From a virus (Duplodnaviria; Heunggongvirae; Uroviricota; Caudoviricetes), in IMG/VR virus record IMGVR_UViG_3300029079_000040: a DNA stretch of 14,279 bases. One strand, 5' to 3'. The position numbers were made by a program, and so were the translations under genes. Positions within the stretch are counted from its first letter, which is position 1. Every line of letters starts with the position of its first letter. Positions 4,876 through 12,276 of this stretch are shown here, one piece after another. A model generated the notes under the pieces. That model saw nothing but the letters and a program-made list of their open reading frames with translations. It was not told where the DNA came from and ran no database searches.

Positions 4876-5341
4876 TGAAAATTCCTCAAGTTGGAGAGTT
4901 CTGGAACATTAAGGCGAGGTGGCAGTAATGCACCATCTGTAATCTTTTGATACTGACGTAATCGGGCCTGATGTGCAACGCCTTGCAAGTATGTAACTCA
5001 TTGAAAACGATCATTTTTATCTATTGACATCAAATGGCAAACTGTCATTGTGCGGCTATGGCAAGTGGCAAATGCTTATAAATCATATGGATATAAATAG
5101 TACAGAAAGAGTTGTTTTCTCTAGGATATGAGTATACGCCCAATGCTGATTGGTTGAATTTTGTTCTTGTTTTAAAGGGTAAGAGTTTAAAGTGTTGGCA
5201 GTGATGTATTGGATAGTTAGAATTGCTGTGGGTGCTTGAGGCTATCTGCCTCGGGCATGAACACCAAAGGTAGATAGAGAAAAGCCCCAGTTAACATTAC
5301 GCGTCCTGCAAGACGTTTAACATTAATCTGAGGCCATATCT

Positions 5342-5401
5342 ATGCGACACATAGAGATTAGCCTCTTACGGACCGAAAGGTCAAGGAGAAGCAGGCTATG
5401 A
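5342..5401 (+). CDS. Short leader ORF (19 codons) ending in ATGA overlap with the hok start; possible mok-like coupling frame
   Basis: ATG 5342 to TGA 5399-5401, overlapping hok ATG 5398-5400. By analogy to mok/hok translational coupling; weak. Confidence 0.25.
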   Translation: MRHIEISLLRTERSRRSRL

Positions 5402-5523
5402 AGCAGCAAAAGGCGATGTTAATCGCCCTGATCGTCATCTGTTTAACCGTCATAGTGACGGCACTGGTAACGAGGAAAGACCTCTGCGAGGTACGAATCC
5501 GAACTGGCAGACGGAGGCTCTGA
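5398..5523 (+). CDS. hokD: Hok/Gef-family type I toxin (HokD/RelF-like N-terminus), 41 aa as read; C-terminus diverges or is frameshifted
   Basis: Translation MKQQKAMLIALIVICLTVIVTALVTRKDLCEVRIRTG-RRRL. The first 37 residues match HokD/RelF as I remember it. AGGAG 9 nt upstream. Canonical Hok proteins continue ...QTEVAVFTAYEPEE; here the +1 frame reads QTEALIRRLLI. Confidence 0.65.
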   Translation: MKQQKAMLIALIVICLTVIVTALVTRKDLCEVRIRTGRRRL

Positions 5524-5986: not shown

Positions 5987-6314
5987 TTGAGGGTTATGTC
6001 AAGCTGTTATGAAACACATAATTGATATGTTGATTAGAGGAGAAGATAGAATCAATATGGTTGTTTTTCGTATAACTATTTGTTTTACTTTTAGTTTGTG
6101 CATTCTGTGTGTTAGGAATAACTTATTAAAGTTTAACTAAAAAATCTCGATATAGTCCGCATAGATTACTGTTACTGAATCTTATTGTGTGCATTAGTTG
6201 TGTTCTGAAATTTCAATTTAATTACTTATGATATATTTTTAACGATAAATGTTTTCCGGGTGAAAGACAGTGGGGGATGAGATAAGCAATATATCATTAA
6301 TCTTGATTATTTCC

Positions 6315-6376
6315 AGGATGCCTTTACTGTGCATATAAATAAATCATATACGCATCAAATAATGTAAAGGCATCCT
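6315..6376. repeat. Perfect 13-bp inverted repeat AGGATGCCTTTAC / GTAAAGGCATCCT separated by 36 nt of AT-rich sequence
   Basis: Read directly from the sequence (6315-6327 and 6364-6376). The loop contains TGTGCATATAAAT; the right arm is followed by TTTTAG. Confidence 0.9.
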
Positions 6377-6814
6377 TTTAGATATATCTTATCAAATGTT
6401 AATGATTTGAGTGGGAAACATGATTCCAGAAACTAATCATGCGGCTACTTTATAAAAATAATGCCCATATAAAACAGCCAGCGAAAAGGATTACGGATAA
6501 AAAAGGAGCGAGATGTGCATAGTTGTTATTTTCCATGTTTAACCACCTTAAATAATTGATGATGACGGGATGTGCATCTGTAATGCTTTTGTTGAAATGT
6601 TATGATAAAAAAGAACTTTTTCATAACATTAAAATGTAATTTATCTAATCGTTTTTAATAATAAGTGTTGTATTTCTATCCTTGTATCAGCTATTTGATA
6701 TGTAGTGTTTGTTCATGTTATGTGGAGCTTTACACCATAGCCAGTTTATTTATACTTTATTCGTCAGCCTGAACAACTGGCATCTGCTGCACTGCGCCAT
6801 CGAGAGATTGAGAA

Positions 6815-7414: not shown

Positions 7415-7704
7415 TGGTGGATTTACGTAAAGCGGCGCGGGGGCAGATGTGCACCGTCAGAATTCCTGGCTACTGCAATCACGATCCGGAAACGTCTGTG
7501 CTGGCGCATTACCGACTGGCGGGAACGTGCGGAACAGCGACAAAACCACACGATATGCAGGCGGCGATTGCCTGTAGCTCATGCCACGATCTAATCGACG
7601 GGCGGGTAAAAACCAGCGATTACACCAAAGAAGAATTACGCCTGATGCATGCAGAAGGTGTTTTTCGCACACAAGAAATCTGGAGAAAGGAGGGATATTT
7701 GTGA
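7414..7704 (+). CDS. ybcO: YbcO-like protein (DUF1364, putative metal-dependent nuclease), 96 aa
   Basis: MVDLRKAARGQMCTVRIPGYCNHDPETSVLAHYR ... ACSSCHD closely resembles DLP12 YbcO (MADLRKAARGRECQVRIPGVCN...) as I recall it, with conserved Cys residues and the same length. Confidence 0.7.
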   Translation: MVDLRKAARGQMCTVRIPGYCNHDPETSVLAHYRLAGTCGTATKPHDMQAAIACSSCHDLIDGRVKTSDYTKEELRLMHAEGVFRTQEIWRKEGYL

Positions 7705-8243
7705 TTTACCCAACGAATACAGGAAAAAGCGGAGAACACCTTCGTCTCGCCACGCTGGAAAGTGTCTGGATTCAGGGCAAACTGCGTATGTGGGGGCGCT
7801 GGTCGTATATTGGCGGTGGCAGGTCAGGAAATATGTTCAATCAGTTGTTGGCATCCAAAAAATTGACGAAAACAGCCATCAATGAAGCCCTGCGCAGAAT
7901 GAAAAAAGCGGGAATAGAGAAAGCTGAGCTGGAAGCGTTTTTGCGAGAGATGATCAACGGCAAGCAAAAGAGCTGGCTGGCGCATTGTACTGATGCAGAG
8001 GCGTTATGTATTGATCGAGTCATAAGTGAGGTGCTGGCAGAGCATCCTGGATTGATTAGTGTCCTCCGGCAACGGTATGAAGGACGGGGGATGACTAAGC
8101 GCAAAATGGCTGAATTGCTAAATGATGCACATCCTGAGTGGTGTTTTAGCACATGCGAAAAGCGAATTGCTAATTGGTTGGCTGTTGCTGAGTATGCCCT
8201 ATATATTCCCATGCGAGAATCATTTGCTCAAAAAATAGCTTGA
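7701..8243 (+). CDS. Late-gene antiterminator Q-like protein, about 180 aa from a GTG start
   Basis: Track ORF 7581..8243; preferred start is GTG 7701 (AAGGAGGG 5 nt upstream, GTGA overlap with the ybcO-like stop). Position directly upstream of a promoter-plus-terminator unit and the lysis cassette. Family assignment (phage Q antiterminator) is by context and partial recollection. Confidence 0.55.
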   Translation: MIYPTNTGKSGEHLRLATLESVWIQGKLRMWGRWSYIGGGRSGNMFNQLLASKKLTKTAINEALRRMKKAGIEKAELEAFLREMINGKQKSWLAHCTDAEALCIDRVISEVLAEHPGLISVLRQRYEGRGMTKRKMAELLNDAHPEWCFSTCEKRIANWLAVAEYALYIPMRESFAQKIA

Positions 8244-8270
8244 TTTTTTACGCATAAACTGCTTCAATTC
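8240..8270 (+). promoter_or_regulatory. Candidate late promoter (PR-prime analogue): TTGATT-17 nt-TTCAAT overlapping the Q stop
   Basis: -35-like TTGATT at 8240-8245 and -10-like TTCAAT at 8263-8268; about 60 nt upstream of a terminator. By eye only. Confidence 0.3.
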
Positions 8271-8326
8271 CGGTATGCTTCGCAAAGCTGTATCGCGAGG
8301 CGAACCAAGCGCATGAACTTTACCAG

Positions 8327-8356
8327 AACCCGCCATTGAGCGGGTTTTGTTGTTTC
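8327..8356 (+). terminator. Intrinsic terminator, tR-prime analogue downstream of Q
   Basis: AACCCGC-CATTGA-GCGGGTT stem-loop followed by TTTTGTTGTTTCT. Confidence 0.55.
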
Positions 8357-8404
8357 TGGTACTGGTGAACCTGATGTTTCATTTCTGGAGCGCGATTCCT
8401 GGCG

Positions 8405-8436
8405 GAATACCTAGAATCGAGACATTCTGGTAAAAT
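8405..8436 (+). promoter_or_regulatory. Candidate extended -10 promoter (TGgTAAAAT) for the membrane-protein moron
   Basis: TGG-TAAAAT at 8428-8436, about 30 nt upstream of the ATG at 8465. Weak -35. Confidence 0.3.
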
Positions 8437-8464
8437 TGTTTTCAGTACAGGATGTGGAGGTGAG

Positions 8465-9034
8465 ATGAGAGAACTACCTAAAGATTATTTTTTAGGAGTA
8501 GATGATGAGCTCGTCGATTATCTTGAAAAACAAGGGGAAGAGACGATACGAGAGATTCATCTTTCTAACAAAACCAATGTTGAGAATGGATACAAACTTC
8601 TGAACATTCAGATTGTTGGAATTGGTTCATCTTTTTTATTGCTGACACAGAAAACTAATTTCGATTTTCTCACCGCCGGAATTACCACATTTACATTACT
8701 ATGGACATGGTGCGCCATTTACTTGGTATGTACTGGTTTATCTGTGAAGGTTAGGGGCCTGATCAATGCCCCTCCTGATCATATATATCATGAAAAATAT
8801 AAGGATATGGAGCCCTCGAGCTTTAAAATATTCGCTGATGCAGGATATTTAGGACCTGATAAGTTATTGCCGCTTATACGAAGGTATCGCCTTGTTGACT
8901 TGAGTGATACAGCAAGAGAGTTACTGTTGGAAAATGAGAAAATCCGCACGAGTCTCGATAAAGCAAGGATGTATACCATCCTTGCTCCGGTAGCGGCGAT
9001 GTTTATCTCGGCTGTTTTTTTATATGTTCAATGA
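8465..9034 (+). CDS. Hypothetical integral membrane protein, 189 aa, three predicted transmembrane helices; moron between Q and the holin
   Basis: Track ORF with GGAGGTGAG immediately upstream. Hydrophobic segments LLNIQIVGIGSSFLLL, ITTFTLLWTWCAIYLVCTGL and MYTILAPVAAMFISAVFLYV; acidic N-terminus. Visibly AT-rich compared with the flanking Q and lysis genes. No family recognised. Confidence 0.65.
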   Translation: MRELPKDYFLGVDDELVDYLEKQGEETIREIHLSNKTNVENGYKLLNIQIVGIGSSFLLLTQKTNFDFLTAGITTFTLLWTWCAIYLVCTGLSVKVRGLINAPPDHIYHEKYKDMEPSSFKIFADAGYLGPDKLLPLIRRYRLVDLSDTARELLLENEKIRTSLDKARMYTILAPVAAMFISAVFLYVQ

Positions 9035-9164
9035 CTGAGTCGGCAGAATCTCCAACAAAAACACGACGTGTAGCAAAGTCTGTAGTACTTTGTGTTGGAG
9101 TTGGTTTTGGTGCCACGGGTTGCTGAGGTTTATTTTCACCTTGTGGTTTGTTTTTTTCAGACAT
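9003..9164 (-). CDS. Possible 53-aa Pro/Gln/Lys-rich small protein, convergent with and overlapping the 3-prime end of the membrane-protein gene
   Basis: Within track ORF 9003..9395; internal start MSEKNKPQGENKPQQPVAPKPTPTQSTTDFATRRVFVGDSADSVIEHIKKQPR has AGAGGA 5 nt upstream of the ATG at 9164..9162. Low complexity. Confidence 0.4.
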   Translation of the reverse strand: MSEKNKPQGENKPQQPVAPKPTPTQSTTDFATRRVFVGDSADSVIEHIKKQPR

Positions 9165-9258
9165 AAAAATCCTCTTTGTTTGAATTGTTACTTTTGGCGA
9201 TTTAACGATATCAAACACGAGTATATACCGCCAGAAGCTTAATCTGGCACTCCATCTG

Positions 9259-9286
9259 GCCCCGGCATGTCCCGGGGCTTTTTCGT
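9259..9286 (+). terminator. Strong intrinsic terminator upstream of the holin gene
   Basis: GCCCCGG-CATGTC-CCGGGGC stem followed by TTTTTCGTTGTT. Confidence 0.6.
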
Positions 9287-9381
9287 TGTTAGGCTCTGGA
9301 AACATCCTCGACTTCTTGTTAGCAAGCCTGAGAGCCTGAATCTTACACTTAGCACCATCCGAACTCTCGGAGGTGAGGCTT

Positions 9382-9723
9382 ATGAAAATGCACAATGCCC
9401 CTCATTCCTGGCCTGACTTACTGGAACTCTTACAAAGTTGGTGGCGTGGAGATACGCCGCTGGGTGCAGTGGTTATGTCAATTATTATGGCTGGTTTGCG
9501 CATTGCCTATTTTGGCGGTGGCGGCGGCTGGAAACGAAAAACGCTTGAGATTCTGCTTTGTGGTGCTCTGACGCTGACCTTTGCATCCGCGCTTGAGTAT
9601 GTCGGATGGCCTAAATCACTTTCTGTTGCCATTGGTGGTGGGGTGGGGCTGATTGGTGTTGATGCTATTCGTGGTGCGGCAATGAGGGTCATCGGTAACA
9701 AGTTCGGTGCCCATAAGGAGTAA
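9382..9723 (+). CDS. S: Class I holin with Met-Lys-Met dual-start motif (lambda S-like arrangement), 113 aa from the first ATG
   Basis: GGAGGTGA 6 nt upstream of ATG 9382. MKMHNAP... parallels lambda S107/S105 (MKMPEK). Three hydrophobic segments. Immediately followed by the R endolysin. The track used an upstream GTG (9373). Confidence 0.75.
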   Translation: MKMHNAPHSWPDLLELLQSWWRGDTPLGAVVMSIIMAGLRIAYFGGGGGWKRKTLEILLCGALTLTFASALEYVGWPKSLSVAIGGGVGLIGVDAIRGAAMRVIGNKFGAHKE

Positions 9724-10681: not shown

Positions 10682-10818
10682 AATCTTAACTACAATATGA
10701 TTCATTTTGATGATTGTTTCATAAGGAACAGTGAAGTAAGATCTAAGAGGAGTTAAATTTTATACAGTATAATCATAATATTGCAGCAAGGTGGTTATAA
10801 TTGAAAGAATATTTAGAT

Positions 10819-12276
10819 ATGAATACATCTCATGTAAGAGTTGTTACTCATATGTGTGGGTTCCTGGTTTGGCTCTATAGTCTTTCAATGTTGCCACCAA
10901 TGGTTGTAGCATTGTTTTATAAAGAAAAAAGCCTGTTCGTTTTCTTTATAACTTTCGTTATATTTTTTTGCATTGGTGGCGGAGCGTGGTATACAACTAA
11001 GAAATCTGGCATTCAATTACGTACCCGTGATGGGTTTATTATAATTGTAATGTTTTGGATTTTGTTTTCTGTTATTAGTGCATTCCCTTTATGGATTGAC
11101 TCAGAACTTAATTTAACGTTCATTGATGCTCTGTTTGAAGGGGTTTCTGGAATAACAACAACAGGAGCAACTGTAATTGATGATGTTAGTTCATTACCTC
11201 GGGCATATTTGTACTATCGGTCACAGTTAAATTTTATAGGTGGTTTAGGAGTTATTGTTCTGGCGGTTGCTGTATTGCCATTATTGGGTATTGGTGGTGC
11301 AAAGCTTTATCAGTCAGAAATGCCGGGGCCATTTAAGGATGACAAACTCACTCCCCGCCTGGCCGATACGTCACGGACACTGTGGATAACTTATTCTTTA
11401 TTAGGTATTGCTTGTATTGTCTGTTATAGACTTGCAGGAATGCCTTTGTTTGATGCTATTTGTCACGGGATTTCCACAGTTTCGCTTGGTGGTTTCTCAA
11501 CTCATAGCGAGAGTATCGGATATTTTAATAACTATTTGGTTGAGCTGGTGGCTGGTTCTTTTTCCCTGCTATCGGCTTTCAACTTCACTCTTTGGTATAT
11601 TGTTATTAGCAGGAAAACGATAAAACCTTTAATCAGAGATATTGAACTTCGTTTCTTTCTGTTAATAGCCTTAGGGGTGATCATTGTTACCTCTTTCCAG
11701 GTCTGGCATATAGGTATGTATGACTTGCATGGAAGTTTTATTCATTCGTTTTTTCTTGCCAGCTCCATGCTCACTGATAATGGTTTAGCTACGCAGGATT
11801 ATGCAAGTTGGCCCACGCACACGATAGTGTTTTTGCTGTTGTCAAGTTTCTTTGGGGGATGTATAGGTTCAACTTGTGGTGGAATTAAGTCACTTCGATT
11901 TCTTATACTTTTCAAACAAAGCAAACACGAGATAAATCAGCTTTCTCATCCCAGAGCGTTGTTGAGTGTAAATGTAGGAGGGAAGATAGTTACAGATCGT
12001 GTAATGAGGTCTGTATGGAGTTTCTTTTTTCTTTATACTCTCTTCACGGTGTTTTTTATACTGGTGTTAAATGGTATGGGATATGATTTTCTTACATCAT
12101 TTGCAACAGTGGCTGCATGTATTAATAATATGGGATTAGGTTTTGGGGCTACTGCATCGTCATTCGGAGTGCTTAATGACATTGCAAAATGTTTAATGTG
12201 CATAGCTATGATTCTTGGTCGCCTTGAAATTTATCCTGTTATTATATTGTTTTCAGGTTTTTTTTGGCGCTCCTAA
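10819..12276 (+). CDS. trkG: TrkG, TrkH-family potassium uptake membrane protein, 485 aa
   Basis: Multi-pass membrane protein with repeated pore-loop-like GxG motifs. Sequence from MNTSHVRVVTHMCGFLVWLY matches Rac trkG as I recall it, and the position directly after Rz/Rz1 is the Rac arrangement. Track ORF starts at TTG 10801; the ATG at 10819 gives 485 aa. Confidence 0.85.
   Translation: MNTSHVRVVTHMCGFLVWLYSLSMLPPMVVALFYKEKSLFVFFITFVIFFCIGGGAWYTTKKSGIQLRTRDGFIIIVMFWILFSVISAFPLWIDSELNLTFIDALFEGVSGITTTGATVIDDVSSLPRAYLYYRSQLNFIGGLGVIVLAVAVLPLLGIGGAKLYQSEMPGPFKDDKLTPRLADTSRTLWITYSLLGIACIVCYRLAGMPLFDAICHGISTVSLGGFSTHSESIGYFNNYLVELVAGSFSLLSAFNFTLWYIVISRKTIKPLIRDIELRFFLLIALGVIIVTSFQVWHIGMYDLHGSFIHSFFLASSMLTDNGLATQDYASWPTHTIVFLLLSSFFGGCIGSTCGGIKSLRFLILFKQSKHEINQLSHPRALLSVNVGGKIVTDRVMRSVWSFFFLYTLFTVFFILVLNGMGYDFLTSFATVAACINNMGLGFGATASSFGVLNDIAKCLMCIAMILGRLEIYPVIILFSGFFWRS

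Follow-up and report, generated by a model that had tools for sequence, protein, structure and literature searches.

A conserved 53-residue protein gene overlapping the end of a prophage membrane-protein gene, and its possible antidote-like role

We analysed a window of 14,279 nucleotides (IMG/VR record IMGVR_UViG_3300029079_000040), a Rac-like lambdoid prophage of Escherichia coli, in which a 53-residue small-protein gene converges on a 189-residue membrane-protein gene between the Q antiterminator and holin genes. Comparative evidence establishes that the small open reading frame (ORF) is a real, conserved protein-coding gene, and on the same evidence it is the obligate convergent partner of the membrane-protein gene. 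We propose an antidote-like coupling: the small gene would hold the membrane protein in check, and lysogeny versus lysis would set the balance between them. We give this reading a probability of about one half. The family is annotated only as hypothetical, and the small gene with a wrong start codon.

Direct reading and translation of the sequence reproduced the ORF as it had first been described, 53 codons on the minus strand behind AGAGGA-N5-ATG, with its last ~10 codons and stop within the end of the membrane-protein gene. An ORF of this length is unremarkable by size, because 94 ORFs of 40 aa or more occur in the window; its conservation lifts it above chance. A single-sequence protein search returned only near-identical E. 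coli copies and two divergent ones, the latter with in-frame PT-repeat indels and a C-terminal half that has diverged yet can still be aligned. We then inspected the regions downstream of divergent membrane-protein homologues for a convergent ORF. Most of the comparative power came from contig look-ups and IMG/VR, the scan of genome collections giving only 8 loci. In 14 closer loci a convergent ORF of 46-53 aa stands beside every intact membrane gene. These loci come from at least 10 genera including Escherichia, Trabulsiella, Serratia, Yersinia and Leclercia, further sources being Citrobacter, Morganella, Proteus, Pantoea and 'Actinobacillus phage pPE4'. Their products share the pattern MSxxNKPxxxxKPQ...KPxP...F-x3-R-x2-VGDSA[DE]-basic tail. 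A family profile search collected 77 protein clusters of 43-53 aa, all 'hypothetical', and the small ORF is found in all 80 IMG/VR contigs with an intact membrane gene, as 39 distinct sequences of 46-64 aa. The distant members of the membrane family located by exhaustive profile search (loci L029, L030, L031 and L033) are likewise accompanied by a convergent Pro/Lys-rich ORF of 43-48 aa, which in L029 is recognisably homologous (MSESKKNSNENKRPQAPQNK...KVFLDSAE). The two coding regions overlap by 20-35 nt in the closer loci and the 80 viral ones, and by 0-71 nt in the distant members.

The pattern of substitution within the small ORF is that of a protein under purifying selection. In its non-overlapping part the ratio of non-synonymous to synonymous rates (dN/dS) is 0.1-0.3, pairwise values spanning 0.04-0.34. 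Synonymous change is in many cases close to saturation, and variability is highest at third codon positions (0.575 vs 0.355 and 0.283). All indels, including PT/Q-rich ones, are in frame. This frame is the only one of the six that is free of stops in 15/15 loci; the open state of the plus-strand ORF at 9090-9242 and of the remaining frames is not conserved across loci. Ribosome-binding sites of the GGAG/AGGA type occupy the same position in the orthologues. The initial annotation had named a genuine small protein partner as one of two possibilities, to be checked by conservation of the frame and by synonymous versus non-synonymous change. Both checks bear it out, as do the in-frame indels and a co-occurrence that reaches from Escherichia to distant AT-rich relatives.

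RefSeq (WP_152948782.1) and PHROG 14506 annotate the small gene as a protein of 71 aa starting at GTG 9218. We rejected this start. Of 18 related loci, 9 have a stop in the same frame no more than 8 codons before the ATG, which identifies ATG 9164 as the conserved start, and loci L007 and L008 differ by a frame-shifting indel within the stretch upstream of it. The 18 extra codons show no conservation at the protein level; the apparent conservation of the 'extension' is that of DNA, namely of a non-coding box described below. The protein of 53 residues is basic (pI 9.7; about 9.3-10.2 in 16/18 loci), with an N-terminal half rich in Pro, Gln and Lys, the conserved F-x3-R-x2-VGDSA[DE] motif and a basic tail, and it has neither a hydrophobic segment nor cysteine. 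AlphaFold2 (AF2) predicted no globular fold (pTM 0.24) and an extended chain with one short helix at residues 42-49, so that in the model it looks like a peptide that would fold upon a partner. The string VFVGDSAD (residues 35-42) led us to consider an SGNH/GDSL hydrolase. Only this block-I-like (GDS) string was found, the ~200-aa fold and the set of blocks I-V being absent, and the PDB profile match to PAF acetylhydrolase (PAF-AH; E=0.26) is at chance level for a protein of 53 aa.

The membrane-protein family comprises 104 homologue clusters of 42-98% identity in Enterobacterales (98 representatives at 50% clustering), and its length is almost constant at 189 aa. The AF2 model (pLDDT 82) consists of three long helices (residues 14-62, 68-92 and 134-188), and there are three hydrophobic segments. 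The side formed by the N-terminus and the 93-168 loop carries 20 Lys/Arg against 1 on the other side; by the positive-inside rule, the N-terminus and this loop are thus probably cytoplasmic. The acidic N-terminal helix is a candidate partner of the small protein. Structure searches with the membrane protein gave generic helical-bundle matches only. For both proteins of the pair, Pfam (E<=1), NCBIfam and PADLOC gave no match, PHROGs only their two self-families of unknown function (11870 and 14506), and PDB profile searches chance-level matches to GpsB and PAF-AH; Pfam searches with ten distant membrane homologues returned sub-threshold noise only. In these searches, neither protein matched a toxin-antitoxin, defence, holin or other known family. 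A membrane-damaging abortive-infection effector, an exclusion factor or a lysis aid are among the possibilities for the membrane protein. Its gene has a candidate promoter of its own, a (ca)GGTAAAAT-like motif that recurs equally far from the gene in 9 or more of the 14 closer loci, in the 'Actinobacillus phage' locus (L026) and in the distant L029.

Upstream of the small gene, the non-coding box surpasses both coding regions in conservation across genera. Within it TG-TAT-GT is invariant in an alignment of 13 loci, and 40 of 47 non-redundant viral loci share the pattern. These positions are those that matter in an extended -10 promoter of sigma-70. Transcription of the small gene would then start near 9198. 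Between the box and the plus-strand terminator lies a hairpin (hairpin 1), which covaries across genera (variants GCCAGT/ACTGGC and GCCGC/GCGGC). It occupies the expected -35 position of the small-gene promoter, just before the terminator. The terminator itself shows compensatory changes in 8 stem pairs, and in the Trabulsiella and Morganella loci (L007, L008, L019) this region is 6-9 kcal/mol more stable on the plus strand.

The two genes are also tied together by a hairpin of the minus strand embedded in the codons of the membrane gene, which all 15/15 closer loci possess. Of its pair cells, 97.2% are standard on the minus strand against 78.3% on the plus strand, because most departures from Watson-Crick pairing are G-U on the former and C-A on the latter. 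Five pairs are changed on both sides. The mean folding energy is -20.7 kcal/mol on the minus and -15.6 kcal/mol on the plus strand, and the minus strand is the more stable in 44/47 viral loci. The stem is followed by T7 in L002 and L004, a textbook terminator, and by TTTAT in the window. The pairing is reflected in the membrane protein through covariation of residues 167 and 174, which are Ala..Ala (GCN..GCN) in some homologues and Val..Thr (GTN..ACN) in others; of the mixed states, Ala..Thr, a G-U pair on the minus strand, occurs in 7/35 cases and the opposite Val..Ala in 2/35. The hairpin is probably a terminator or 3'-end structure of the small-gene mRNA, and its substitution pattern shows selection on a minus-strand RNA reaching at least position 8960. 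With this hairpin inside the membrane gene, the small mRNA would be antisense to the 3' end of the membrane mRNA. Extending from ~9198 to ~8955, it would measure ~245 nt, and the final ~80 nt of the membrane-protein reading frame would be complementary to it; should the plus transcript stop at the closing terminator of the cassette, the complementarity would cover the full length of the small mRNA.

The second possibility of the initial annotation was a transcript acting as an antisense regulator of the membrane protein. The antisense geometry has gained structural support from the covarying hairpin, and the regulatory effect stays a prediction. A small protein partner and an antisense RNA, which had been set against each other, are not alternatives: both can hold. 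Among Rfam families only sok reached the gathering threshold in the window, and chance matches only were found at E<=5 across 8250-9420. The coordinates of the features are collected in Table 1.

Table 1. Features of the gene pair and its surroundings (positions in the 14,279-nt window)
Feature	Position	Strand	Details
Q-like antiterminator gene	7701-8243		DUF1133
Intrinsic terminator between Q-like gene and cassette	8324-8349	+	tR'-like; terminator scan
Candidate extended -10 promoter of membrane gene	8428-8436	+	TGGTAAAAT, ~30 nt before ATG; role assigned by pattern
Inner-membrane protein gene, 189 aa	8465-9034	+	PHROG 11870
Embedded hairpin, 12 bp	8960-8988	-	inside membrane-gene codons ~166-175, 15-43 nt past small-ORF stop
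Overlap of the two coding regions, 32 nt	9003-9034		contains T7/A7 homopolymer run
Small-protein gene, 53 aa	9003-9164	-	translation MSEKNKPQGENKPQQPVAPKPTPTQSTTDFATRRVFVGDSADSVIEHIKKQPR*
Shine-Dalgarno sequence AGAGGA	9170-9175	-	5 nt before ATG 9164; direct sequence reading
Conserved non-coding box, 27 nt	9187-9213	-	minus-strand reading TGATATCGTTAAATCGCCAAAAGTAAC
Candidate extended -10 promoter of small gene	9213-9205	-	TGaTATcGT; role assigned by pattern
Hairpin 1	9230-9248		GCCAGA-N7-TCTGGC, between box and plus-strand terminator
Intrinsic terminator closing the cassette	9258-9284	+	GGCCCCGG-loop-CCGGGGC then TTTTT; terminator scan
Holin gene, next after the pair	9382-9723		matches Phage_holin_3_1

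Two homopolymer runs lie in the small ORF, A7 at codons 3-5 (9147-9155) and T7 in the overlap (9014-9020). Natural 1-nt deletions occur within the A7 run and beside the T7 run. The A7 deletion of one locus, L028, truncates the small ORF alone, and in locus L027 (P0007 cluster, 12 contigs) both C-termini are rewritten by loss of G 9014, the base preceding the T7 run.

The gene pair is, on comparative grounds, a self-contained accessory cassette, or moron, that moves between temperate phages. Its GC content is 0.40 against ~0.50 in the neighbouring genes, and it has a terminator on both flanks; a hairpin similar to the upstream one precedes the cassette in L004, L007, L008, L015 and L017. Conserved -10-like motifs, as candidate promoters, and variable position or absence complete the features of a moron. 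The cassette was found in 257 of 5426 complete E. coli genomes (~5%), the neighbouring sequence matching 703. It stands behind three unrelated families of antiterminator (Q) and before differing holins, and in Citrobacter koseri between the tail chaperone and tape-measure genes; other insertion sites are a Mu-like late region and a place beside a cI-like repressor, giving four contexts in all. In the flanks (±3 kb) of the 80 viral loci, 93.5% of the long-ORF bases are on the strand of the membrane gene, so that within a lytic operon the small gene alone points the other way. Locus L029 has a Peptidase_S24 repressor gene on the strand of the small gene, which begins 15 nt behind the repressor stop codon and is presumably expressed together with this lysogeny repressor.

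Some placements of the cassette recall Stx phages: in Escherichia sp. 20412-1 (L002, 3900-6100) it occupies the stx position between Q and a nanS-p-like SASA esterase gene, and in Citrobacter (L015, 4700-4850) a tRNA gene follows it directly. In locus L026 (PP818812.1, 'Actinobacillus phage vB_Apl-pPE4'), hok, DUF1367-like and Q-like genes accompany the same cassette, with near-identity to E. coli prophage DNA, and the segment of the upstream terminator is 96.8% identical there. This record resembles an enterobacterial lambdoid phage, and the stated Actinobacillus host may thus be wrong.

A stretch of 1.2 kb around the gene pair is 100% identical to several complete E. coli chromosomes. On one of them, NZ_CP128875.1, RefSeq lists ydaU/ydaV-like replication genes, KilA-N, hok, DUF1367, DUF1364 and the Q-like antiterminator, followed by two 'hypothetical proteins', a lambda-family holin, lysozyme, Rz and trkG. 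The two 'hypothetical proteins' are the plus-strand membrane-protein gene and the minus-strand small ORF. In the window, a promoter-like TTGGCT-18-TATATT inside the end of the Q-like gene and the terminator behind it (region 8178-8349) give a pR'-tR' layout with a short leader. A hok/sok type I toxin-antitoxin locus lies at 5230-5523; its parts are sok (RF01794, 101.5 bits; 5230-5400) and a hok ORF of 41 aa (5398-5523). Positions 6001-6500, between the DUF1971 and DUF1367 genes, are very AT-rich (GC 0.296) and without long ORFs. After the lysis cassette, 10801-12276 hold a trkG-like potassium transporter gene (GC ~0.39), as in the Rac prophage of K-12; this is another moron.

In the antidote-like coupling that we favour, the small gene would be transcribed in the lysogen from its own extended -10 promoter or, in the distant relative L029, directly behind a cI-like repressor. 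It could restrain the membrane gene through antisense transcription and RNA pairing, and its basic disordered peptide could bind the cytoplasmic acidic helical part of the membrane protein. Lytic transcription, here the Q-antiterminated late transcription, would sweep through the cassette and flip the balance to the membrane protein. The label of a toxin/antitoxin-like or immunity-like arrangement, which had been suggested for the pair, is plausible by analogy. A bolder version assigns two actions on a membrane effector to a single short mRNA, one as a cis-antisense RNA and one by way of its encoded disordered peptide of 47-64 aa, in an undescribed and widespread system; we put this forward tentatively and regard it as doubtful. 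If true, this antidote, part RNA and part peptide and governed by the choice between lysogeny and lysis, would represent a new class of toxin-antidote or abortive-infection module, in which the terminator hairpin written into the effector codons would force the amino-acid covariation of the effector.

Several observations weigh against the antidote-like coupling. In L028, from one E. coli genome, the membrane gene is intact and the small ORF has lost 1 nt of its A7 run; the peptide would be dispensable if this deletion is real, and alternatively it may be a homopolymer sequencing error. Conversely, the membrane gene of Leclercia L012 is broken and its small ORF intact, which is compatible with an antidote outliving its toxin and equally with an independent function of the small protein. 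Co-occurrence and co-divergence of the two genes carry little weight, because physical overlap alone predicts both; the mirror-tree correlation of the two proteins (rho 0.43-0.55), positive but uninformative for physically overlapping genes, was discarded as evidence. A clear embedded hairpin was not found in the distant L029 and L030. The assignment of promoters is based on patterns, and a two-hexamer scan found no promoter at these sites. The box also contains an unexplained 4-bp stem, GTTA/TAAC, with two independent double compensatory changes (GTTG/CAAC in L009 and GTCA/TGAC in L010), which sits poorly with a role as a mere -10 promoter. Finally, with a candidate promoter in front of the membrane gene, both genes may be on together in lysogens, which fits a toxin-antidote pair and weakens a strict toggle.

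The rival explanations differ in how far they separate the two genes. That the ORF arose by chance or through an artefact of annotation is virtually untenable: ORFs of similar size are common on any strand and its composition is of low complexity, but the dN/dS values, the 77 clusters, the sole open frame and the 80/80 contigs refute it. Very improbable, too, is a non-coding antisense RNA in which the ORF is incidental. The convergent 3' overlap and the conserved terminator-like hairpin do resemble lambda OOP/cII and type I toxin-antitoxin pairs, but such an RNA would account neither for the low dN/dS of the non-overlapping part, the variable third positions, the in-frame indels and the conserved ATG and Shine-Dalgarno sequence, nor for a protein motif kept at near-saturated synonymous divergence and in distant relatives. 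The small gene might instead encode an independent lysogenic-conversion protein with its own target in the host, linked to the membrane gene by the compactness of the cassette and a shared terminator region. Small prophage proteins with host targets are known, for example DicB. The conserved promoter-like box of its own, the small ORF left intact beside the disrupted membrane gene of L012 and a disordered basic peptide without structural hint of a specific partner would all suit such a protein. We nevertheless find this explanation rather unlikely, since in ~100 loci, including members of ~30% identity and different phage types, the small gene never occurs without the membrane gene or a remnant of it, and its hairpin is built into membrane-gene codons with the accompanying covariation (A..A vs V..T), which ties the two genes over long evolutionary time.

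The remaining rival keeps the pair together and changes its sense: the membrane protein would be a defence or exclusion factor of the lysogen, and the small gene the switch that turns it off and prevents self-harm at a given stage, a division of roles like that of Tha/Ith or Tai/Ati. Insertion occurs at sites classical for morons and defence genes (Q-holin; tail chaperone-tape measure, as for HK97 gp15; beside cI, as for rex), both genes have candidate promoters, and precedents exist (PMC11087260, PMC11364771). Against it, the direction of lytic transcription is that of the membrane gene and opposite to that of the small gene, which follows cI in L029; flank orientation and cI linkage thus make the small gene look like the member expressed in lysogeny. 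PADLOC models, moreover, gave no match. We consider this explanation unlikely on balance.

In the literature, no paper was found that names the accessions or PHROGs of the pair, and keyword searches gave analogies only. A small protein with its start corrected to 53 aa and its conserved partner are added to the 'hypothetical' fraction of temperate-phage genomes, with carriage by ~5% of complete E. coli genomes and by many other Enterobacterales. The embedded hairpin exemplifies how RNA structure can constrain the protein encoded by the opposite strand. Should the membrane protein turn out to be an effector, the pair would be a new defence or toxin-antidote family missed by current defence-finder models.

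An identity as holin, antiholin or spanin was considered and rejected, since only the gene after the pair matches a holin and the small protein has neither hydrophobic segment nor cysteine; without cysteine, it also lacks the lipoprotein signal of a proline-rich Rz1-like protein. Membership in the lysis cassette is weakened because the gene pair also occurs away from lysis genes, in the tail cluster and adjacent to cI. Phage morons such as HK97 gp15 and lambda bor and lom are autonomous units of promoter, gene and terminator. The pair resembles them in its lower GC content, its presence or absence among related phages and its use of the same hot spots (Q-holin; tail chaperone-tape measure). 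It differs from described morons as a convergent two-gene unit with interlocked transcripts and without homology to any described moron protein.

In Bacillus prophages, txpA/RatA and bsrG/SR4 are type I toxin-antitoxin pairs with convergent 3' overlap, and the hok/sok locus of the window is another type I system for comparison. Here too a prophage membrane-protein gene faces a convergent transcript, predicted at ~250 nt, that is complementary to its 3' end, an overlap that is itself supported. We rejected a type I system proper: its toxin is usually a hydrophobic peptide of <60 aa and the partner here has 189 aa, three long helices and a ~75-residue soluble loop; its antitoxin is non-coding and the antisense transcript here would carry a conserved ORF under purifying selection. 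Dual-function RNAs such as SgrS/SgrT and SR1/SR1P combine a base-pairing RNA with an encoded small protein and act in trans on distant targets; here the complementarity is in cis, and the dual action is putative. Among phage antisense RNAs, lambda OOP (with cII) and STnc6030 of BTP1 (PMC7067206) are comparable. The small-gene transcript is like these in being antisense to the 3' end of a phage gene and in having its own, here candidate, promoter and a terminator hairpin; unlike it, neither of those RNAs codes for protein, and they target regulatory or structural genes.

The closest parallel in arrangement is Tha/Ith of Staphylococcus aureus prophages, where the effector is inhibited by the product of a small gene that overlaps it in antisense, antisense transcription adding a minor effect (PMC11087260). 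It forms a noncontiguous operon, in which the small gene has its own promoter and the arrangement couples effector activity to lysogeny versus lysis (PMC11087260). The small gene in our window likewise lies within a larger operon, on the opposite strand from a prophage accessory gene that it overlaps. The orientation of the Tha/Ith type is seen directly in the flanking genes (93.5% of bases on the membrane-gene strand), and the overlap of transcripts is predicted from the hairpin and the terminator. In contrast, there is no relation in sequence or fold: Tha is a cytoplasmic HEPN RNase and the protein here a three-helix membrane protein, and a search of the pair for a HEPN RNase or Tha-like effector or an Ith-like inhibitor gave no Pfam match at E<=1 and no PADLOC match. 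The polarity also appears to differ, since Tha lies in the cI operon and its inhibitor rises in the lytic cycle, whereas the small gene here appears to be on the lysogeny side. Tai/Ati of phi80 was rejected as a relative, being sited before the packaging genes and without a membrane protein (PMC11364771); it offers a looser parallel for the life-cycle logic. In staphylococcal phages the antisense-embedded architecture balances immunity and autoimmunity (PMC11087260), and the pair provides a testable case of this architecture in lambdoid late operons.

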